Below, one piece after another: positions 1 to 9,464 of a stretch of DNA of 64,000 bases. The translations under genes and the position numbers were made by a program. Every line of letters begins with the position of its first letter. The first letter of the stretch is position 1. The notes under the pieces were generated by a model. That model was not told the origin of the DNA and made no database searches. It saw only the letters and a program-made list of their open reading frames with translations. The DNA is from Anaerohalosphaeraceae bacterium (GTDB taxonomy: Bacteria > Planctomycetota > Phycisphaerae > Sedimentisphaerales > Anaerohalosphaeraceae): the NCBI GenBank assembly GCA_963675525.2, contig CAXXSL010000001.1, positions 64,001 to 128,000 on the forward strand, in the 5' to 3' direction.

Positions 1-1145
1 TCCCGTGCATCCTTACGGTCTATTTTGAGGGTATAACAGGCATTCCCGTCAATGATACCTCGACCGGAAATGGTTATATTCGAGGAATTCCAGATACCGA
101 TAGCCGGTTCCATGGCTTGCTTGCATTCCTGGAGCCGATTTACCAACAGCGCATCTTCATCCAGGTAGATGTTCAGTTCGCCGTCTGCCCCGTTGCCATT
201 CCAATCTTTGATACATAGACCGGACCAGATGTAAGTGCCTGCGGGAAAGTAGATCGTGTCTAATTCAGAACGTGTTCTTACTTTTTCCAACGCTGCCTGG
301 AATGCCTCAGATAGATCAATTTTAACCCTCACACGCTTATTGGGGAACTGTACGTTTCTTCCACTCTGGCTCACATATTTACCCGCTTCATAATGCCATG
401 TGAATTGCTCGTTGGTGTTTCTGCTTGTATCGGTAACTGTTCCCGGGGGACGACACTCCTGGCCCTCTTGATCAGTGATAGGTTTATTTTTCAGATAGGT
501 CGCGGCGAACTTCTTGAAGTTAAGAACATTGCCGGCATTCAAATCAGGTTTGCCTGTTTCCGGCGGGTCGTTGATGATAGCCAGCATTGGGATGCCTGCC
601 ATCTTCTTATCCGTTAGGCTGCCGTTTATATTGATGATGCAATACGGCAGCTTTTCGGACATGGTAAAGGTCAATGTCTTTTTGTCGCTGCTAACGCTCA
701 GCGCTTCCTGAGGATAGTAACGTTCCGGGTAAATTTCAATACTGTTGATTATCGTATCGTCCTTTAATGTGATCTCGAACTTAGGAGTTCTGTCTTCCGA
801 AGAAAACCGTGCAATATCAAAATTGTAGAACTTGCTGCCATCCGGACCTTTCTTGTACATGTAAACAGAAACAGATGTATCATTTGCAGTCATTTCAAAC
901 TTGGTAGATTCCGGGTACTGTGTGTTCTCTGTAATGTCATCGCTGGCCAGAATGGCAGACTCATCTATCTCTGTTGTGGCAGGATCGTCCCCCGATTTGC
1001 CGTAGTCGTGTACCGCGCCACCCTTACCTTCTGCGGCAAGGTGATTAGCAGGAAATATAGCCAATACGATAAGCGTGGCAATCAGCAACACAAACGCCCT
1101 GGTTTCAGGATTTATGTTCTTTTGAGTTGTATATTTAGTCATCAT
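1..1145 (-). CDS. Secreted right-handed beta-helix glycoside hydrolase-like protein (pectin-lyase fold; GH28/49/87-like), running off the window edge
   Basis: Manually translated open frame not in the ORF track. Signal-like N-terminus (AFVLLIATLIVLAIFPA), motifs DLSEAFQAALEK..TIYFPAGTY and NITISGRGIIDG, AAGGAG RBS upstream. Confidence 0.7.
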   Translation of the reverse strand, partial: MMTKYTTQKNINPETRAFVLLIATLIVLAIFPANHLAAEGKGGAVHDYGKSGDDPATTEIDESAILASDDITENTQYPESTKFEMTANDTSVSVYMYKKGPDGSKFYNFDIARFSSEDRTPKFEITLKDDTIINSIEIYPERYYPQEALSVSSDKKTLTFTMSEKLPYCIININGSLTDKKMAGIPMLAIINDPPETGKPDLNAGNVLNFKKFAATYLKNKPITDQEGQECRPPGTVTDTSRNTNEQFTWHYEAGKYVSQSGRNVQFPNKRVRVKIDLSEAFQAALEKVRTRSELDTIYFPAGTYIWSGLCIKDWNGNGADGELNIYLDEDALLVNRLQECKQAMEPAIGIWNSSNITISGRGIIDGNACYTLKIDRKDAR

Positions 1146-1215
1146 TATAAAGCTCCTTGATTCATAGGTCGCCGCTTTTCAGACAGCGAAGAGACTTGCC
1201 GATGACACATTAATA

Positions 1216-1237
1216 CCCCAAGGGGACTCGAACCCCT
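1216..1237. repeat. att core, left copy (displaced tRNA-Glu 3' fragment)
   Basis: Identical to 9243-9264 inside tRNA-Glu. Confidence 0.95.
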
Positions 1238-1433
1238 TGAACGAGGTATACAAGGAACTTATAACAAAGAACTTACGGAAAGTCAAGCATCTGTCTTGTC
1301 CACTGGCTTGGACAAAACCCTGCAAAAATACCCCGAATTGGGGCATATCATAGCCGCTTGGCCGGAACTGCCCGAACACACCAAAGAAGCAATTACATCA
1401 CTTATTCAAGCTCATAATCAGGAGGTCAAGTAA
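1236..1433 (+). CDS. Displaced C-terminal 65 codons of the integrase (no start codon; in frame with int across att)
   Basis: Stop-free frame LERGIQ...VLSTGLDK...YPELGHIIAAWPELPEHTKEAITSLIQAHNQEVK*, continuing from PRGLEP in the same register as int. Confidence 0.8.
   Translation, partial: LERGIQGTYNKELTESQASVLSTGLDKTLQKYPELGHIIAAWPELPEHTKEAITSLIQAHNQEVK
1292..1317. promoter_or_regulatory. Palindromic putative arm-type recombination site (left)
   Basis: TGTC-TTGTCCA-N6-TGGACAA-AA; near-identical copy at 9124-9149. Confidence 0.65.
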
Positions 1434-1621
1434 TGCTTAATATCAGCAGACGATTAGGTAAAGCTGAAAAGGCACTGAATCTAAGCGGAGAACATATTAC
1501 CGTTAAAATGGTCTGTTATGGTGGTGAATTACCACCTGACCGGACACAAGGCAATATAACTGTTCAATATGTTATGTATGATAAAAAGGAAAATCAATGC
1601 GAAACATTAGCAGGCGAATAA
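1433..1621 (+). CDS. Small element protein (NISRRLxxxE N-terminus)
   Basis: GGAGG RBS, TAATG overlap with the upstream stop, N-terminus similar to the next ORF. Confidence 0.7.
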   Translation: MLNISRRLGKAEKALNLSGEHITVKMVCYGGELPPDRTQGNITVQYVMYDKKENQCETLAGE

Positions 1622-1797
1622 ATACTATCGAACAAAAAATGAATATAGTCTGTCATAGAAAGATGCCAAGGCGGGTTCTTTATCTTTCAAGTAAACAATG
1701 GCAAGAGGACGGGTGTCCAAGGAATTGTGTAATTTTGGGCAAGAAAAACAACAAAAGGCAACCAAAAACAACCAATTCCCCGAAAGTTGAGCGATAA
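1597..1797 (+). CDS. Small element protein, N-terminal paralogue of 1433-1621
   Basis: MRNISRRINTIE vs MLNISRRLGKAE; AAGGA RBS. Confidence 0.55.
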   Translation: MRNISRRINTIEQKMNIVCHRKMPRRVLYLSSKQWQEDGCPRNCVILGKKNNKRQPKTTNSPKVER

Positions 1798-1798
1798 C

Positions 1799-2173
1799 AT
1801 GAGCGAAGCAAAACTTACAGCCCGACAGCTTAAAGCGATACCGCATATCGTCAGCAGTCCTACATATACCGATGGCTGTAAAAAGGCTAAAATCAATAAG
1901 ACCACATTTTATAAGTGGCTAAAAGAGCCTGAGTTTAAGGCCGAACTCGACCGGCAGCGGGACGAGATAGCCGCTGAGGCGTTCGGTGTGCTATCACAGA
2001 GCCTTACTCAAGCGGTTGAGGCTCTTGTGGGCTTGCTGGACAACAAAGACGACCGGCTGAAAAGACTGGCCGCTAAAGACGTAATCGACTTCATTATCCG
2101 GCATAAGGAAAATGAGGACTTGGACGAACGGCTAAAAGAAGTCGAAAAGCTTTTGGCAGATAAAAGACTTTAA
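1799..2173 (+). CDS. phBC6A51-type HTH protein (terminase small subunit-like)
   Basis: LTARQLKAI..CKKAKINKTTFYKWLKEPEF HTH followed by AVEALVGLL..RLAAKDVID helical tail. Confidence 0.7.
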   Translation: MSEAKLTARQLKAIPHIVSSPTYTDGCKKAKINKTTFYKWLKEPEFKAELDRQRDEIAAEAFGVLSQSLTQAVEALVGLLDNKDDRLKRLAAKDVIDFIIRHKENEDLDERLKEVEKLLADKRL

Positions 2174-2485
2174 GACCTACCACAGTGAACCTCTTTTGCA
2201 TTAGTTACTTTGATTGCCAATTGATTTATCTACAGTGAAAGCAGAAAATGGATCAGTCTGATTGAAAACAAAAACGACTTAAGAAAATTGAAGCACAGGC
2301 CGGAACCGAAGAAGACTGGGTAAAACTTCCCGACCCGAACAATCCCGGCAAAATGATTGTGTAATGGTTTCAATTTGGAATTTTATAGTTCTTATTCTGT
2401 ACATGCTAAAAGAACATTTGTGACTATATTTTAAATGTAATATCGTTCTTTGACAAGTTAAAAGGTCGGCTGGGGGGAAGTAAAA

Positions 2486-3196
2486 TTAGTCAAAAGGATT
2501 TTGGTAAAGCTCTGATTCTTTCACTTCAAAGTTATGCCCATATTTTTTGCTTACACCTTCAATTAATTTCTTGAGCCACATAGAAGTCTTTGGCGCGATA
2601 TACACTTTTTGGATAAGAATGTCGAGGTCAATTTTTATTTTTATTCCATTGGAACCCTGGTTTTCTATGATTATCGACCGGAGTTCTTTTTCGTGGCTGA
2701 AAGATGGATGTTTTAATCTTGCCGCATCTAAGGTACTGTAAGATTTTCCTGTTTTGTGAGTGGGCGTACCAACATGGTTGTTACTATATGCTACTTTGGC
2801 GATATACACTTCATGCGGACACCCGGCAAGAGCTTTTTTGAGCCTTCCAGATATAGATTTAATGGCAATTCCTTCATTGCTTTTAAGGTACAATTTCCAT
2901 AAAGCAGCAGATTCTACTTTGTTCATATGCCAGCAGTTAGCATATGTTATGGCTTTGTTGACATTGAAGAGATTTTCGATACCTTTAGGGATAGATGGGT
3001 CTTTTTCTTTTATCAGCTTACGAAGTGGTTTACTTGTGACATTCCAGAAGGAAGAATCGAGGGGGTCTTCAAACCGCATCGAATTGCAAAAAAACAGTGT
3101 CTTGGTGTGCAGTAAATCCACATATTTGGTGAAATCCATATATCGCCAAATCGTTATATTGTCGGACACATCTGATATTATATTACTGTTTATCAT
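2486..3196 (-). CDS. DUF2971-like cargo protein
   Basis: IWRYMDF..FEDP..CWHMNKVESAALWKLY..K...FSHEKELR..VYIAP motif series. Confidence 0.75.
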   Translation of the reverse strand: MINSNIISDVSDNITIWRYMDFTKYVDLLHTKTLFFCNSMRFEDPLDSSFWNVTSKPLRKLIKEKDPSIPKGIENLFNVNKAITYANCWHMNKVESAALWKLYLKSNEGIAIKSISGRLKKALAGCPHEVYIAKVAYSNNHVGTPTHKTGKSYSTLDAARLKHPSFSHEKELRSIIIENQGSNGIKIKIDLDILIQKVYIAPKTSMWLKKLIEGVSKKYGHNFEVKESELYQNPFD

Positions 3197-3258
3197 ATTT
3201 AGAGATTGTATTGTTTCGGAAATTATAGCCTGGCGGCTGGATTAGGCAAGGGAAAAAC

Positions 3259-3798
3259 CTATCGGCTCCGTTTGAGCCTAAGGGCTAAACCGCCTAAACC
3301 CAAAAGTAAAAGTGTGCAGGGTTCGGGGACAAGTATCCAATTGCCCGGTTCATCAGGTCCAACTTTGGCTAATGTAGAGCTGACAGGTGGGAAAATTCCT
3401 ACTAAGTCAATAGATGCTGTATGAGATGGTAAATGGTTATCGTCAAATGTTGTCTCAATGAATATTTCATCGCTAAGAAAAATATAGAAATTCCATAAGG
3501 TAAATGTTGAATAGTCATTTGATAGTGTGGCAGATAAAGGTATTGTTTCAATATTTGCAGTATTTGAACTTAATGTTGTTGGTCCTGCTGTAAATGACCA
3601 GTTCAAAAAATCTGTTACAATTAATCCCTCTAAGGGTATATCTATTTCGACAAAACCCGTTATTCTGAAACCCTCATATAACGGAGTCGCATCGGTAAAA
3701 ACATTTCCTGTGTATTCATATATAAGAGATGAATGTACAACATTTGTTGTTAAACTCAATATTGAGAAAAGTACAATTAGCTTTTTCATCTTCCCCAT
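3259..3798 (-). CDS. PEP-CTERM sorting-domain protein
   Basis: Signal peptide; C-terminal VPEPCTLLLLGLGGLAL + RLKRSR. Confidence 0.92.
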   Translation of the reverse strand: MGKMKKLIVLFSILSLTTNVVHSSLIYEYTGNVFTDATPLYEGFRITGFVEIDIPLEGLIVTDFLNWSFTAGPTTLSSNTANIETIPLSATLSNDYSTFTLWNFYIFLSDEIFIETTFDDNHLPSHTASIDLVGIFPPVSSTLAKVGPDEPGNWILVPEPCTLLLLGLGGLALRLKRSR

Positions 3799-3811
3799 CC
3801 TCCATTAAATG

Positions 3812-4480
3812 TTATCGTTTTCTAATCAATATGCCACTCATGCCCAACAGCAGAAGTGTGGTAGGTTCTGGGACAGCTATTACTGCTGCTGAGAGGTCGT
3901 TCTCTTCAATAGGTATCGCAAAGCTTGTATTGTCAAGCCACCTGCCCGTCAACGTGCCCGTGCCCAATATTGTTTGGCCATCAATATCCCATGAAAGACC
4001 ACCAAATAGTTCAAAGTCAGAACCTTCTATAATAACAGTGCTGTTACTGTGAGCGTGGAGACCGGCCAAGCTACCGCCGGAAATATTTAGCTGGCTGTTG
4101 CCATAAGTCACCCAAGCACCTACCGAACCACTGGATATTGTTACTTGGCTATTCTGATCCGATGATGAAGCTCCAATTACTGAACCCCCGGATATTGCTA
4201 CCTGGCCGTTATTTTGGGCTCTCAAATAGCTTACTGAACCAGATATTGTTGCCTGGCTTGTATCGTTTATCCACAAATAGTATATCAAACTTCCGGGTAA
4301 GATTTCGACTGTTGTTGGAAATCCAGAAGATGAGTTTCGCACCACGACATCATCATCAATCGAATAGCCAATATTGTGTGCTCCGCCATCTTCAAAATAA
4401 ATAACCGCCCTTGCTTCTGGAAAACAAACACATAAAGCCACTAGCATTGATAATAGAAATGTTCTTTTCATCTTCCCCAT
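3812..4480 (-). CDS. PEP-CTERM sorting-domain protein with ISGGS beta-repeats
   Basis: Signal peptide; VPEPTTLLLLGMSGILIRKR. Confidence 0.92.
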   Translation of the reverse strand: MGKMKRTFLLSMLVALCVCFPEARAVIYFEDGGAHNIGYSIDDDVVVRNSSSGFPTTVEILPGSLIYYLWINDTSQATISGSVSYLRAQNNGQVAISGGSVIGASSSDQNSQVTISSGSVGAWVTYGNSQLNISGGSLAGLHAHSNSTVIIEGSDFELFGGLSWDIDGQTILGTGTLTGRWLDNTSFAIPIEENDLSAAVIAVPEPTTLLLLGMSGILIRKR

Positions 4481-4570
4481 CCTCCAAAATATGCGTTTCC
4501 TTCAATTTTCTCCGATGGTTTGATTATAGCGAATCAGGATACGGATAATCAACGAAAAAGGGGGGAATCC

Positions 4571-4598
4571 TTGTAATACTGCCCAAATCCGGTATAAT
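4571..4598 (+). promoter_or_regulatory. Putative sigma70 promoter
   Basis: TTGTAA-16nt-TATAAT upstream of the structured leader and the 4722 gene. Confidence 0.5.
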
Positions 4599-4623
4599 TA
4601 CGGGTACAAACAAGCTTTTTATG

Positions 4624-4706
4624 TCGGGACGGCAGGCCGTACACCTGCCAAGCAGCACAATCGGGGTAATGTACACCTGTCCGTTATCCTGCTTGTGCCG
4701 ACCCGA
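4624..4706 (+). ncRNA. Candidate structured RNA (c4/CI antisense-like)
   Basis: Closing stem TCGGGACGGCA/TGCCGACCCGA, inner hairpins GGCAGG/CCTGCC and GGGTAATG/CGTTATCC, GTACACCTG present twice. Confidence 0.45.
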
Positions 4707-4721
4707 AGAAAGACAGGTAAA

Positions 4722-5375
4722 ATGACGAATCCATCATTACTTGACTATATGCAACTTGCAAAACGTTTCTATGCAGACCTCAATGTTTATACTCAAACAC
4801 AAACTGAAACTGATTTATATAAAAAATCAGATAAGGTAAATACAACATATCTGAAAGCCAACATTGATTCGTTGGGGGATGTAGTCTTTGGTCTTCAACA
4901 GGACGGCTATGCAGACAAAGCAACAGCTTTGGTAATAGCTGTTGAGAATGTTCGTAGGGCCGTAAAAAATCACGACAACGGGAAGACTACAGGGACAGAG
5001 GTGAAAGTACATGTCGCTCATCTTATCAAACAATTAACTGCTTTATGTCGTCCGACAGCACCCCAAATATCTACAGAACCAATGCAAAATAAGCAGACTG
5101 CAATAGAAAATAAACAGTGTTGGCATAATCCAGATTTTACGTCGGTCGTTTGGTACGGCATTGAATATTGCTTTAACAAAACACAAGGGAAAATCATCAA
5201 TTACCTTTGGCAGAATGAAACTGCAACAGAAATAAAGTTGGGTGAAATTATCGGCACAGCGGCAGGAATCTATCGGCTAAAAGATACTTTCCGAAACAAA
5301 GAAGGCTATCATTGTGCTTGGGGAAAAATGATAGTAAAAGCAGGAAAAGGCTGTTTCATGCTAAATAAATCATAA
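4722..5375 (+). CDS. Putative regulator with C-terminal winged-helix domain
   Basis: C-terminal DFTSVVWYG.EY.F.KTQGKII.YLW...RLKDTF...GKG.F pattern is wHTH-like; ACAGGT RBS-like sequence. Confidence 0.55.
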   Translation: MTNPSLLDYMQLAKRFYADLNVYTQTQTETDLYKKSDKVNTTYLKANIDSLGDVVFGLQQDGYADKATALVIAVENVRRAVKNHDNGKTTGTEVKVHVAHLIKQLTALCRPTAPQISTEPMQNKQTAIENKQCWHNPDFTSVVWYGIEYCFNKTQGKIINYLWQNETATEIKLGEIIGTAAGIYRLKDTFRNKEGYHCAWGKMIVKAGKGCFMLNKS

Positions 5376-5383
5376 AGACGGCC

Positions 5384-5418
5384 CCCCACAAAACCCCACT
5401 AAAACCCCACAAAACCCC
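5384..5418 (+). repeat. Four phased CCCCAC-AAAA direct repeats
   Basis: CCCC starts at 5384, 5394, 5405 and 5415. Confidence 0.85.
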
Positions 5419-5458
5419 TTTTTGTTTTTCAACGACTATATGATTTACTATAGTCATA

Positions 5459-5659
5459 ATGAAAGATGAAAACTCGAATCTGATAAATTTACTTGGCTTA
5501 GCCGGAGAGCTTCAACTTCCTGCCGTATGGCTAAAAGAGCAAGCATTAAAGGGCTTTATTCCCTGTCTGTTCATCGGCAAAAAAATCCGATTCAATGTAG
5601 ATGCTGTCAAAACAGTATTAGCAGACTTGGCAGCAAAGGGGGCTAACTATGAAGACTGA
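5459..5659 (+). CDS. Small excisionase-like DNA-binding protein
   Basis: LAGELQLPAVWLKEQA..G.IP.L.IGKKIRFN resembles a Xis/HTH_17 wing. Confidence 0.65.
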   Translation: MKDENSNLINLLGLAGELQLPAVWLKEQALKGFIPCLFIGKKIRFNVDAVKTVLADLAAKGANYED

Positions 5660-5894
5660 AGCCCCCACAATCCAGCCTGCACTTTTGACGATTCCACAAG
5701 TCTGTCAATACCTGAATATCGCACGTCCAACATTCTACAAAATCAATCAAACGGGGGCTTTTGGCCTGTTACCTATTAAGCTGGGAACTTGTCGTAAAGT
5801 TTTGTACTCACGCGCGGAACTTGAAGCATTTTTGCGGGCGGGCTGTCCGCATAGAAAAATATGGCAAACACAAAAAAAGGATTTTATGAAATGA
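5649..5894 (+). CDS. Excisionase/AlpA-like HTH protein
   Basis: LLTIPQVCQYLNIARPTFY..PIKLG.RKVLYSRAELEAF. Confidence 0.8.
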   Translation: MKTEAPTIQPALLTIPQVCQYLNIARPTFYKINQTGAFGLLPIKLGTCRKVLYSRAELEAFLRAGCPHRKIWQTQKKDFMK

Positions 5895-6112
5895 GGCTAA
5901 AGATGATTCCAGAAAAAGAAAAAGCCGTTGCGATAACAACGGCCATGAACAACAAACTACAACTTAAAACATACAGCAAAACCGCATTTCTGTCAAGCCA
6001 AAAAGAGCAGATGGGCCAATTATTGTTTGCACTTGTAGGGGATACTGCCGACCGGCAAGGATGGGTTCTATTTGAGCGGTTCTTGGGTGGATACTACAAA
6101 GGGGCGCGATAA
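5891..6112 (+). CDS. Hypothetical element protein
   Basis: Coupled to both neighbours by ATGA and TAATG overlaps. Confidence 0.55.
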   Translation: MRLKMIPEKEKAVAITTAMNNKLQLKTYSKTAFLSSQKEQMGQLLFALVGDTADRQGWVLFERFLGGYYKGAR

Positions 6113-7338
6113 TGAGTAATCCTTTGTTGAATGAAGCTCTGGAATGCCACGGGCGCAAGTGGTGTATTATCTCTGTGCCTTATGGCAAAAAGAAGCCGGT
6201 TATTAAATGGGGCATTTATCAAAAGACCCGCCCGGATGAAAATACTATCCGGCAATGGTTTTCAGGCGATAAGGCGAATATAGCGGTCTTATTGGGTGAA
6301 ATCAGCGGCGGTCTTACCTGTCTTGATTTTGACGATATGCAGGGCTATGAACAGTGGAAACAAGCCAATCCTTCACTTGCCGCTAAATTGCCGACTGTTA
6401 AAACATCTCGTGGTATGCATGTTTATTTTCAGTCAACACTAACAAAAACCCAAAAGATGGAAAAACTTGATATAAAAGCGTCTGGATATTGTATGCTGCC
6501 CCCATCGCTTCACCCTGACGGAAAAACCATTTACAGGTGGTTGATTCAGCCAAACGGGGATATACCTGAACTGACTTTATCTGAATTAGGTATAGACCAT
6601 TTAACAGAAGAAACAGACGCTATTGCTTCACTTTCTTCACTGTCATCACATTCCTCACTGTCTTCACATTCTTCACCTTCTTCTGTAAAGTCAATCAATA
6701 AAGAAATAGTTATCTTTGAAAAACTGGATGATAAGATTCAACATTATGTAAATATGGCCGTAAAATGTACTTTGCCGAGCAAAACAGGTTATCGCAATTT
6801 CTTGATTTTTCAGTTTTGCCGATGGTTAAAAGGACATTCTGAATTTGAAAAGCTCACTGCCGGACAACTAAAGCCACTGGTTAGACTCTGGCATGGACGG
6901 GCATTGCCTTTTATCGGTACTCAGGAATTTGACGTAACATGGGCCGATTTTGCTTATGGATGGAAACGAGTCAAATATCCGAAGGGAAACGGAGCATTGA
7001 AAACAGCGGTAGAAACAGCATTGAACGCAGAAAATCTTATCCCTGCCGAGGAAATATATGAAAAGCCCGAAATGAGATTATTGGTAAGGATTTGCTTTGA
7101 ACTCCAGAAATTACAGGAAAAAGAGCCGTTTTGGTTGTCTTGGAATGATGCGGCTTTGATATTGGGGGTATCTACACCAACGGCGGGGAAATGGCTCTGT
7201 ATGCTTGAGGCTGATAGTGTAGTTCAAAAGGTTGAAGGGCACACCCATATAAAAGCGGCAAGATATATATATTTATTGGAGATTGAAAATTTTATTGAAA
7301 AAGAACTTGACAGAAATACGGAATACCGTACAATATGA
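6112..7338 (+). CDS. Bifunctional DNA primase/polymerase (Prim-Pol) replication protein with C-terminal HTH
   Basis: KKP.IKW..YQ, NIAVLLG..SGGLTCLDFD, VKTSRGMHVYF, YCMLPPSLHPDG motifs. Confidence 0.88.
   Translation: MSNPLLNEALECHGRKWCIISVPYGKKKPVIKWGIYQKTRPDENTIRQWFSGDKANIAVLLGEISGGLTCLDFDDMQGYEQWKQANPSLAAKLPTVKTSRGMHVYFQSTLTKTQKMEKLDIKASGYCMLPPSLHPDGKTIYRWLIQPNGDIPELTLSELGIDHLTEETDAIASLSSLSSHSSLSSHSSPSSVKSINKEIVIFEKLDDKIQHYVNMAVKCTLPSKTGYRNFLIFQFCRWLKGHSEFEKLTAGQLKPLVRLWHGRALPFIGTQEFDVTWADFAYGWKRVKYPKGNGALKTAVETALNAENLIPAEEIYEKPEMRLLVRICFELQKLQEKEPFWLSWNDAALILGVSTPTAGKWLCMLEADSVVQKVEGHTHIKAARYIYLLEIENFIEKELDRNTEYRTI
7307..7334 (+). promoter_or_regulatory. Sigma70 promoter with operator palindrome
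   Basis: TTGACA-16-TACAAT with TACGG-AATA-CCGTA in the spacer, just before ATG 7343. Confidence 0.7.
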
Positions 7339-7342
7339 GTAT

Positions 7343-7558
7343 ATGACAATGATTAGAAAAGCAATTCTGAAACGCATGGGTGAACTGAAAATGAACCCTA
7401 ACCAGTTATCCGAAATACTCAAGGGCAGTATCCCCCGTATGACAATCTATGATTTCTTATCTGGTAAAAGTGATGCACGTTCGGAAGTTGTGGGGGAAAT
7501 AATGAAAGCCCTTGGGCTTGAAATTGTGTCCAAAAGTGCTAAAAGAAAAGGCAGGTGA
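7343..7558 (+). CDS. XRE/Cro-like HTH regulator
   Basis: MNPNQLSE..IPRMTIYDFLSGKSDA..IMKALGL. Confidence 0.8.
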   Translation: MTMIRKAILKRMGELKMNPNQLSEILKGSIPRMTIYDFLSGKSDARSEVVGEIMKALGLEIVSKSAKRKGR

Positions 7559-7561
7559 AGC

Positions 7562-7900
7562 ATGACGAACAGAGAAATTGAGAACAAAAAAAATGAGTTG
7601 ATTAGAATTGTTAATATGTCAAGCGGGACGGAAAATCAACGCATGAAGGAACTACGTAAGTTGGCATTAGATGTAGGAGCAAGTCATAAAACTGTAGATG
7701 GCAACCGGAATGCTAATGAAGCAGAATTGGTTGTCGGTATTCAAACCGCATTGCAAACAGCGTTGATGCTTAATTCCTGTAAGAGTTCAACAATGGCTTG
7801 GATTATAGCAATAATTTCTGTGGGCATAGCTCTAATCTCTACATTAGTTTCAGGACTTAGTGCGGTTGCAGCTTGGGTTGCGGTTTTTGTGAATGAATGA
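7562..7900 (+). CDS. Hypothetical protein with C-terminal transmembrane segment
   Basis: Hydrophobic C-terminus; GCAGGTG RBS. Confidence 0.7.
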   Translation: MTNREIENKKNELIRIVNMSSGTENQRMKELRKLALDVGASHKTVDGNRNANEAELVVGIQTALQTALMLNSCKSSTMAWIIAIISVGIALISTLVSGLSAVAAWVAVFVNE

Positions 7901-7923
7901 TAAAACGAAAAGGCAGGTGAAAA

Positions 7924-9277
7924 ATGAGAGTTTACAAACCTACATACAAGGACAGGAACGGTCAAAAGCAAAAAAACCGCTGCTTGGTATGTCGATATTT
8001 TCGACCATAACCGACTTCGGCATAAAATACCGGCTTTTGCCGATAAGCGGTTGTCCGAAGCATTAGGGCGGAATATTGAAAGCCTTATCAACTGCCGGAT
8101 TGCAGGGCTTGAACCCGATGTTAAACTTAACCAGTGGATAGAAACCCTGCCTGACAGTTTGCTAAAGAAATTCGTGTCTTGGGGGCTGATTGACGGACAG
8201 CGGGCAGAGATTACAAAGCCACTGAAAGAGCATATAGACGATTATATCAAAATTCTCAAAGCCAAAGGATATTCCAAGGACTATATCACTCGGTCTAAAA
8301 ATCGTCTTAAAAAAATCACGTCTGATTGCAGATTCACTTATTTCAGGGATATTACACAATCAGCGGTTGAAATTTATTCAGGTAAACTCAAAAAGGATGG
8401 TTATGGCGATACCAGCAGGGCGCATTATCTTGATGCTCTGAAAACTTTCCTGAATTGGGCAGAAACAGACCAACGGATTATTCGCAACCCTATTTCAAAG
8501 ATGGGGAAACCGGCAAGGGATTCAGAGAAAAAGGGGATTTTGACACCGGAGCAATTTATTCGGCTGATTCAGACGACAATCAAAAAGAATATCATCATTC
8601 AGACAACAACCGGCGTAGATCGTGGGATTTTATATTTTCTGGCAGGGGTTACGGGGCTAAGAAGAAGGGAATTATTGCTCTTGACGTGGGACGATCTGCA
8701 CCTTGCCGGAGAAAGCCCCTTTGTACTTGCAAGGGCGGATACTACTAAAAATGCACAGGAAGCCCACCAGCCGATACCTGCAACGCTGGCAAGGCTTCTG
8801 GAAGCCCTACAAGGCCATAGGAAGCCCGAAGGAACGGGCAGGCTATTCGAGGGCTTTGCTATGTCGATCAATACGGCTATGCTAATCAGAGAGGATTTGG
8901 CGGTTGCTAAGATAAAGCCCAAGGACAAGGACGGGAACGAGGTATGTTTTCATTCGCTACGAAATTCCTATATCAGTTATTTGGCCAACGGTGGCGCACC
9001 GGCCAAGATCGTTCAAAAACTGGCCAGACATTCAGACCCCCGCTTGACTTTCAACACTTATGCCAGAGTCTTTGAGGAAACCGAACAGGAAGCCATTGCA
9101 TTACTGCCGAATGTCGGAAATTTTGTCTTGTCCAACTGCTTGGACAAAAACTGGATAAGGCAGGAGATTTGCATAGACAACCAGAGACACAAAAGCAGCC
9201 AAGACACGATAGAAACCGCATTCTTGGCTGACAGGAAACTACCCCCAAGGGGACTCGAACCCCTGTTACCGGGATGA
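7924..9277 (+). CDS. int: Tyrosine recombinase/integrase; apparent +1 frameshift at the A7 run 7970-7976; 3' end overlaps att/tRNA
   Basis: TGLR, TTKN, FHSLR, ARHS and NTY catalytic motifs. N-terminus MRVYKPTYKDRNG..WYVDIFDH lies in two frames. Confidence 0.92.
9124..9149. promoter_or_regulatory. Palindromic putative arm-type recombination site (right)
   Basis: TGTCTTGTCCAACTGCTTGGACAAAA, matching 1292-1317. Confidence 0.65.
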
Positions 9278-9312
9278 GAACCCGGCGTCCTAGGCCGCTA
9301 GACGATGGGGGC
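9240..9312 (-). tRNA. tRNA-Glu(CTC)
   Basis: Acceptor GCCCCCA/TGGGGGT, anticodon arm CCGGG-TTCTCAT-CCCGG, GGTTCGAG T-loop; CCA not encoded. Confidence 0.95.
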
Positions 9313-9390
9313 CTTTGGAATTTTCAATTGATCATTGTCAATTGTAGAATAAAACCAAAAACAAGCTCATCGAGAGCTTGTTTTCGGCAA

Positions 9391-9464
9391 TAGCGGCGGG
9401 TGGATTCGAACCACCGACCCTGGGCTTATGAATCCCATGCTCTAACCAACTGAGCTACGCCGCC
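9391..9464 (-). tRNA. tRNA-Met(CAT) (elongator-type or Ile2 not excluded)
   Basis: GGCGGCGTAGCTCAGTTGGTTAGAGC...TTCATAA...GGTTCGAATCC. Confidence 0.92.

Follow-up and report, generated by a model that had tools for sequence, protein, structure and literature searches.

The 64,000-nucleotide (nt) stretch of DNA analyzed here (the window; contig CAXXSL010000001.1, positions 64,001 to 128,000, of an Anaerohalosphaeraceae bacterium) carries a transfer RNA (tRNA) gene, tRNA-Glu(CUC), whose 3′ end holds an integrated element of 8,027 bp. The bounds of the element are the two copies of a 22-nt direct repeat, CCCCAAGGGGACTCGAACCCCT (family D16), which are 100% identical, lie 8,027 nt apart, and occupy 1216–1237 and 9243–9264. 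Most probably, the interval 1216–9264 is an 8.0-kb integrative Prim-Pol element whose attachment site (attP) resides within the 3′ end of its own integrase gene (int), past the catalytic tyrosine, with a long integrase (Int) made from the circle and a short Int made from the prophage. The architecture of the genes, its conservation among relatives, and both int forms as DNA are matters of direct observation. The attachment site, the target tRNA, and the integrase gene are laid out as follows.

1216–1237, no strand: left repeat copy (attL core), a displaced 3′ fragment of tRNA-Glu
1236–1433, + strand: detached int tail of 65 codons plus stop, which doubles as the P′ arm of attP and carries a WPxLP motif
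1292–1317, no strand: P′-arm palindrome, ~55–80 nt after the core, encoding VLSTGLDK (tail helix 1)
7924–9277, + strand: tyrosine integrase, prophage (short) form, with ATG at 7924 and main frame at 7976–9277 (P0001)
9041–9242, + strand: post-tyrosine stretch of int (a helix, then a linker), which doubles as the P arm of attP; ratio of nonsynonymous to synonymous differences (pN/pS) 0.70
9124–9149, no strand: P-arm palindrome, ~95–120 nt before the core, encoding VLSNCLDK
9240–9312, − strand: tRNA-Glu(CUC), with its 3′ end supplied by the element; the last int codons read the tRNA antisense
9243–9264, no strand: right repeat copy (attR core), within both the int open reading frame (ORF) and the T-arm/acceptor 3′ half of tRNA-Glu

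In its integrated form, the element codes for a short Int of ~450 residues. Its frame reads through the right core, located ~60 codons past the TYARV motif, as PRGLEP and ends with ADRKLPPRGLEPLLPG, the stop codon (9275–9277) lying inside the antisense tRNA; the final residues, (G)LEPLLPG, are thereby antisense tRNA. Residues 189–367 of P0001 match the Pfam family Phage_integrase (PF00589) with 53.1 bits against a cutoff of 27.1, and a SAM-like domain (PF13102) is matched with 26 bits against a cutoff of 22.3. R229, K258, H326, R329, H352, and Y362, the putative catalytic residues of an R...K...HxxR...H...Y pattern, are invariant in 33 homologues. Because the catalytic domain lies wholly upstream of the core, both forms of Int are probably active, as judged from sequence.

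The left copy of the repeat tells the complementary half of the story. Since 8,027 leaves a remainder of 2 when divided by 3 (8,027 mod 3 = 2), the int frame maps to the left-copy frame that holds the 65 codons. From one stop to the next this frame reads HINTPRGLEPLERGIQGTYNKELTESQASVLSTGLDKTLQKYPELGHIIAAWPELPEHTKEAITSLIQAHNQEVK (TPRGLEPLERGIQGTYNKELTESQASVLSTGLDKTLQKYPELGHIIAAWPELPEHTKEAITSLIQAHNQEVK up to the stop), with 65 codons (1236–1430) after GLEP compared with four (LLPG) at the right copy. It is preceded by a stop at 1203–1205, and the tail stretch contains no ATG or GTG, its sole common start codon being TTG 1296. The initial annotation, made from the letters of the window, had described the int frame as crossing the right core and stopping in the antisense tRNA (PRGLEP, then LLPG), the catalytic motifs as preceding the att core, and the left copy as followed in register by 65 stop-free codons without a start. 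All three descriptions proved accurate, with TTG 1296 as the only candidate start.

At its N-terminal end, int is interrupted as assembled, a feature that the initial annotation had overlooked. ATG 7924 opens a frame that reads MRVYKPTYKDRNGQKQKNRCL and on to a stop, and a 7-A run (7970–7976) shifts the int start out of frame (an apparent +1); at this position homologues read ...KQKTAAWY. One contig of sequencing run X1 has one A fewer at 7970 (depth 9.24 of 9.24), and the contigs of run X2 break at 7971–7975. The frameshift probably stems from misassembly or from variation in the population, and int is therefore probably not a fixed pseudogene. As run X1 may be the source of the window itself, the contig lacking one A is not independent evidence. 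The window genome contains only one close copy of int.

The junctions themselves are not perfectly symmetric. The tRNA fragment at attL has four C residues (window 1214–1219), and the intact tRNA end has five (9240–9246); small deletions near the discriminator, as at attL here, are mentioned for displaced tRNA fragments in the Islander paper (PMC4383910). The GC content is ~0.44–0.47 around and to the left of attL, 0.37–0.44 inside the element, and 0.49–0.55 beyond the tRNA. The left flank at 1190–1233 also occurs in a 676-nt contig of run X1 with a depth of 5.7, which possesses the fifth C that attL is without and continues beyond 1233 in unrelated sequence. This contig may come from a variant junction that some members of the population, or a related strain, carry. 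Both runs also contain, at higher depth, a 140-kb contig with a tRNA-Glu that differs at five positions (compared with window 9236–9421) and is followed by tRNA-Met, with other sequence to the left of its tRNA-Glu. This contig belongs to a related, more abundant organism without the 8-kb element at the tRNA-Glu site.

Integrase ends and detached tails among relatives

A word-indexed search yielded 250 int homologues, and the C-termini of the best 120 were analyzed. These 120 are 59–93% identical to the window Int, and several are labelled Planctomycetota. The great majority (112) stop no more than four residues after G.EP, five have other short C-termini, and three (P0096, P0115, and P0122) continue for more than 100 residues past the tyrosine motif. 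One protein 93% identical to the window Int (P0003) departs after ...ADRKL and ends in RLGGRLSNCFICPTN, not in PPRGLEPLLPG; this end may point to another junction or target, or the 3.4-kb contig may be chimeric.

The corresponding loci were drawn from 84 sources (three genome loci, 80 metagenome loci, and the window), in 78 of which a tyrosine-motif pattern recognized int; most relatives come from metagenome contigs. The int 3′ end lies over an antisense tRNA-Glu(ttc) in 30 of the 78, over tRNA-Glu(ctc) in 21, over tRNA-Asn(gtt) in 15, and over tRNA-Leu(cag) in one. The remainder comprise six in which int runs off the contig, three short forms with no tRNA detected, and two long forms with no tRNA behind int (L074 and L081). 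As such, 67 of the 72 complete int 3′ ends overlap an antisense tRNA. The same arrangement is, from these sequences, common to a large element family, whose named records are Planctomycetota, that uses tRNA-Glu(UUC), tRNA-Glu(CUC), and tRNA-Asn(GUU), and tRNA-Leu(CAG) at one locus. In a phylum sample of 401 genomes, a close int homologue (E ≤ 1e-60) occurs in two, the window's own counted; a scan of IMG/VR with the int alignment returned no relatives.

Conservation of the tail frame had been set beforehand as one of two tests capable of refuting the proposal. In nine of nine elements whose distal core was located (the window, L002, L011, L025, L039, L050, L058, L001, and L003/L096), the core is followed by the same tail, open and in the register of int. 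This holds across considerable variation in layout: the tail of L003/L096 lies 14.9 kb upstream; the repeat of L001 extends to 56 nt, and its left junction includes 25 int codons from a former neighbor; and L039 retains the register with a core of the type seen at tRNA-Asn (TPRVGFEPT). In L054, the tail is present and the contig stops within the end of int, and L067 gives a partial match to the tail profile.

The fused gene, too, exists among relatives. P0096 (513 residues) and P0115 (516 residues) continue past the core into ...NKALTEN..PVLATSLD...PDLEQIISAWPKLPEHTKQAIKSLAQT..., the tail of the window, and the tail is likewise fused to int in L081. The 6,275-nt contig L074 has a 127-nt terminal overlap, with which it assembles as a 6,148-nt circle, and its 528-residue Int crosses the core into a divergent tail. 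Homologues that fuse the tail to an integrase, which the initial annotation had called for, were thus found in P0096, P0115, and L081, and with a divergent tail in L074/P0122. Both refutation tests left the proposed anatomy standing. Unintegrated-type DNA in relatives would accordingly be the carrier of a fused long Int of ~511–516 residues, as read from these records. Behind the fused int of L081 (843–2999), an apparent recombinase fragment and a transposase-like ORF can be read by eye; the surroundings of this fused form are a mosaic, not a clean element. Two homologues of G314 (L009 and L010) were considered as long forms for their long open frames and rejected: the hidden Markov model of the tail matches neither, and the extension of L009, which reads through another tRNA, does not contain the tail motif.

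When the tail profile was searched against 1.84 billion cluster representatives, 1,654 matches were obtained at E ≤ 1e-3 and 113 at E ≤ 1e-10. Among the best 150 of the 1,654, nearly all are small proteins of 37–170 residues with the tail at the C-terminal end, and these are gene calls at attL; P0136 and P0159 retain 46–48 int residues before the core, and P0127 retains 17. Long forms would be hidden in a library of representatives because they would be clustered with short integrases at 50% identity. An annotation artefact is thereby explained: hypothetical small proteins of this kind are detached integrase tails that mark the ends of islands, as well as old scars. A decayed second tail (…QKYPDVQQILEVWETLPKHVKQAIMAQI…) at G000:C1:62169-62261 (L092 1501–1593), with stops before it and no core, lies ~3 kb to the left of attL and ~1.8 kb to the left of the window start, and is the scar that a previous element left at this site. 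Two further candidates were set aside. P0258 (1,127 residues), with seven partial matches to the tail profile, is a helical-repeat protein whose resemblance looks generic; and in P0153, Pfam finds nothing in the N-terminal part that had been considered the end of a different recombinase, its tail alone matching P0096.

Coding signal, fold, and arm palindromes of the tail

The tail bears the marks of a translated sequence, albeit one under uneven selection. Frame 0 is free of stops in eight of eight related tails, compared with two of 40 instances of the other frames, a contrast that exceeds chance, and both insertions in the L054 tail keep the frame. The 10 aligned tails all share the W, P, and L of WPxL, and the second P of WPxLP varies. 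The pN/pS ratio differs by region as follows.

Int N-terminal and core-binding part: 0.30
Int catalytic domain: 0.26
Linker from tyrosine to core: 0.70
Whole tail: 0.76
Tail, first 26 codons: 0.91
Tail, 13 codons over the palindrome: 0.88, with a pS of 0.22
Tail, helices 2–3 (27 codons): 0.56, with a bootstrap range of 0.43–0.72 and a pS of 0.54
Tail, C-terminal end: 0.74

From these regional values, ~125 int codons overprinted on attP therefore appear to evolve almost freely as protein, with moderate purifying selection seemingly confined to the last helices of the tail.

Structure prediction partitions the long Int in a similar manner. The AlphaFold2 model of P0096 (88 aligned rows) has a confident integrase body, then ~90 predicted disordered residues with a predicted local distance difference test (pLDDT) score below 50 in most of residues 375–462 and at or below 50 from 399 to 462, and helices at 466–477, 480–490, and 493–507 with block means of pLDDT 81–92. 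Folded alone (10 rows), the window tail gives the same three helices at pLDDT 81–87. The stretch from shortly past the tyrosine, across the core, to ~20 residues beyond it is thus predicted to be disordered and overprinted on attP, and the last ~45 residues are predicted to form a small three-helix domain (…VLSTxLD… YPEL… WPxLPExxKxAIxxLI). Pfam matches no family in the tail, and a protein atlas search returned only Planctomycetota clusters without names. By our own count the window tail is slightly acidic, a charge that argues weakly against DNA binding. A complex prediction that paired the Int body (P0096 residues 1–392) with the tail domain scored 0.00 in a run without controls and speaks neither for nor against a contact.

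Each arm of attP contains one copy of a 7-6-7 palindrome, TGTCTTGTCCA-N-TTGGACAAAA (TTGTCCA N6 TGGACAA; family D10), which encodes a duplicated peptide, VL(S/A)TxLD, in the linker and in tail helix 1. The half-site varies between elements, and within nearly every element examined the two arms share the same variant: TTGTCCA in the window, L002, and L039; TTGGCCA in L011 and L081; TTTGCCA in L001, L050, and L058; and TTGGACA in L054. In L025, the right half alone matched exactly. The palindrome is a putative attP binding site for Int or for an accessory protein, and the four half-sites of the two copies could suit either the N-terminal domains of Int or a dimeric accessory protein. Gene conversion between the arm copies could also keep the palindromes alike.

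Accessory genes, proposed switch, and alternative explanations

Beyond the integrase, the genes of the element include the following.

1433–2173, + strand: three overlapping small ORFs (1433–1621, 1597–1797, and 1787–2173), the last of which matches HTH_Tnp_1_2
3259–4480, − strand: two PEP-CTERM cargo proteins (3259–3798 and 3812–4480), both slightly under the Pfam cutoff
5649–5894, + strand: HTH_17 (MerR/excisionase-type) small protein, E 5.7e-8
6112–7338, + strand: Prim-Pol replication protein, E 2.7e-19

A weak DUF2971-like gene and an HTH_3 protein are also found between the repeats. The HTH_17 protein is a candidate recombination directionality factor. The ATG of the first small ORF (1433) overlaps the stop codon of the tail (TAATG), and in four of 10 elements the tail stop lies against the next ATG or overlaps it. 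Promoter and terminator scans of window 1000–2300 gave counts at the level of shuffled sequence. The start regions of the two PEP-CTERM genes (3783–3811 and 4465–4493) are 90% identical over 29 nt and the genes stand in tandem, an arrangement that looks like a local duplication inside the element.

In the mechanism that we propose, the long Int would be made only from circular (or tandem) DNA, would become available only after excision or on entry, and would carry out or favor integration. The short Int together with the HTH_17 excisionase-like protein would suffice for excision, as reported for the Myxococcus phage Mx8. The tail domain would modulate assembly or directionality through a contact. 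Excision would also place the three small downstream genes directly behind int, because in the circle the tail stop overlaps the ATG of ORF 1433. The initial annotation went so far as to infer that recombination itself switches the activity, stability, or directionality of Int, an idea that draws on the analogy with IntP and IntX of Mx8. We put forward with considerable reservation, as a possibility, a more specific version, in which the tail would serve as a recombination-state sensor: a tethered three-helix module, present only in the circle (or tandem), that would license integration or block re-excision, with co-evolving arm palindromes and an operon hooked to int by excision. If true, this would amount to a phylum-wide directionality switch inside a bacterial int gene, independent of the excisionase or added to it.

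A number of results weigh against a state-dependent Int with a functional tail. Neither a 9264-to-1238 joint nor an empty-site joint was found among the Logan contigs of two runs from one sample, so that the read-based look for the attP circle suggested by the initial annotation came back negative; because contigs drop rare forms, this is not evidence of absence. The fused forms and the circular assembly could come from tandem copies instead of free circles. As assembled, int is frameshifted, though one read-derived contig is not. The tyrosine-motif pattern missed int at six of the 84 sources (L003, L051, L052, L067, L068, and L080), and neither repeat nor tail occurs in the sequence covered for L019, L020, L059, L070, L073, L076, L085, L090, L049, and L053 (at least 6.4 kb upstream); elements larger than 10 kb exist, as L003 demonstrates. 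On the same side stands the tail itself, under weak overall selection (pN/pS 0.76, and ~0.9 over the first 39 codons) like that on a disordered translated linker (0.70), with a low pS (0.19–0.22) over the palindrome that points to constraint at the level of DNA. In the L074/P0122 lineage the tail is of another kind and lacks WPxLP. Finally, comparison of the tail model with 48,161 PDB representatives gave only generic helical matches (best Z score 3.8); no known fold was matched, and therefore the fold provides no functional hint.

Several of these same features (the relaxed pN/pS, the lowered pS over the palindrome, the unrelated tail end of the L074 lineage, and the lack of a matching fold), together with the close spacing of the tail stop and the next ATG in four of 10 elements, would also be expected if the tail were functionless read-through, conserved as a DNA constraint on the P′ arm and perhaps carrying ribosomes to the next gene. 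We regard this as unlikely, given that helices 2–3 show a pN/pS of 0.56 (0.43–0.72) at a normal pS of 0.54, that the W, P, and L of WPxL never vary among the 10 tails, that the three-helix prediction is confident (pLDDT 81–92), and that the frame is open in every tail examined, with indels in frame. Far less probable still is an independent small gene, no part of Int, that is expressed from the integrated element. Gene callers do report free-standing ORFs of 40–170 residues, which make up nearly all of the best 150 tail matches, and initiation at TTG 1296, for instance, would yield a 45-residue peptide with the whole helical domain. However, there is no conserved start, the counterpart of this TTG being TTT in L001, L050, and L058; most copies have stops directly before the core; the register of int is kept across three core types; and fused forms exist.

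We give hardly any credence to the notion that the left tail is foreign to the 8-kb element, a scar that an older element, or one in tandem, left at this tRNA site. Such scars do occur, as the decayed tail ~3 kb to the left of attL illustrates, the left junction of L001 contains 25 int codons of a former neighbor, and attL has a 1-nt deletion. Yet the tail at attL is unbroken and its end falls on the start of the element's first gene, the GC content drops from ~0.44–0.47 at and to the left of attL to 0.37–0.44 inside, and the P and P′ palindromes of the window share a half-site variant (TTGTCCA / TGGACAA), as those of other elements do.

Relation to known split-gene systems

The closest parallel to an integrase that exchanges its own C-terminus is that of Mx8, a tailed phage that integrates at tRNA-Asp. 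In Mx8 and in the present element alike, attP is embedded in the coding part of int past the catalytic domain, and the C-terminus is exchanged on integration; in the element, the displaced codons remain in register at the far end. In one account, attP of Mx8 is within int and integration creates a new int 3′ end, such that the enzyme is not inactivated and its behavior changes (PMC6070905); the integrases of both Mx8 and SSV are said to extend across attP in another (PMC4383910). The differences are nevertheless substantial. Unlike Mx8, the element family consists of 6–16-kb Prim-Pol elements, uses several tRNA targets, and exchanges a discrete, predicted three-helix mini-domain on a long disordered tether. 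A tblastn search with P0096 against 50,697 phage records produced 349 weak matches of at most 30% identity, the best of them generic integrases, and Mx8 is absent from the 15 listed of these 349. The element appears to work like Mx8, and the matches listed give no support for kinship with the Int of Mx8.

Archaeal integrases of the SSV1, pTN3, and pT26-2 type provide a looser comparison. As described in a review, these "suicidal" (type I) enzymes have the att site inside the int gene, which tRNA integration partitions; the split cuts Int(N) off from the catalytic Int(C), thereby inactivating the enzyme, whose family is PF16795, Phage_integr_3 (PMC8371274). In contrast, the catalytic domain of the present element is intact after integration and belongs to PF00589, and its Int is no suicidal integrase of the SSV type. 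Both systems had been proposed as analogues in the initial annotation. The likeness to Mx8 stands, in that attP is within int and the catalytic part is spared, and the likeness to SSV1 is loose, since the split there removes the catalytic part. Self-disrupting integrases are stated to be exclusively archaeal in the same review (PMC8371274). The present family qualifies that statement, though the split here spares the catalytic domain. Our literature search on attP together with the integrase C-terminus in Planctomycetes found no papers, and, by title, the papers listed for attP within an integrase gene include nothing on a bacterial family of this kind, nor do the titles listed in a broader search.

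A third parallel crosses a different gene. In mycobacteriophage BPs and its relatives, according to one report, attP is inside the repressor gene, the viral and prophage C-termini differ, and integration acts as the switch (PMC3694055). Here, too, attP lies in a coding sequence whose C-terminus changes with integration; in BPs, the gene crossed is the repressor and the part removed is a proteolysis tag, whereas in the element the gene is int and the part removed is a predicted folded domain, in which no degradation tag was identified, although no test aimed at one was made. By analogy, integration-dependent immunity may be considered a functional cousin of the design of the element. The split-integrase design, described for one bacterial phage (Mx8), seems to be the usual condition in a large, uncultured Planctomycetota family of small Prim-Pol elements. 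Because its tails are numerous, its tRNA targets several, and its arm sites co-vary, this family would provide a natural comparative set for understanding how a self-made change of the C-terminus controls directionality.

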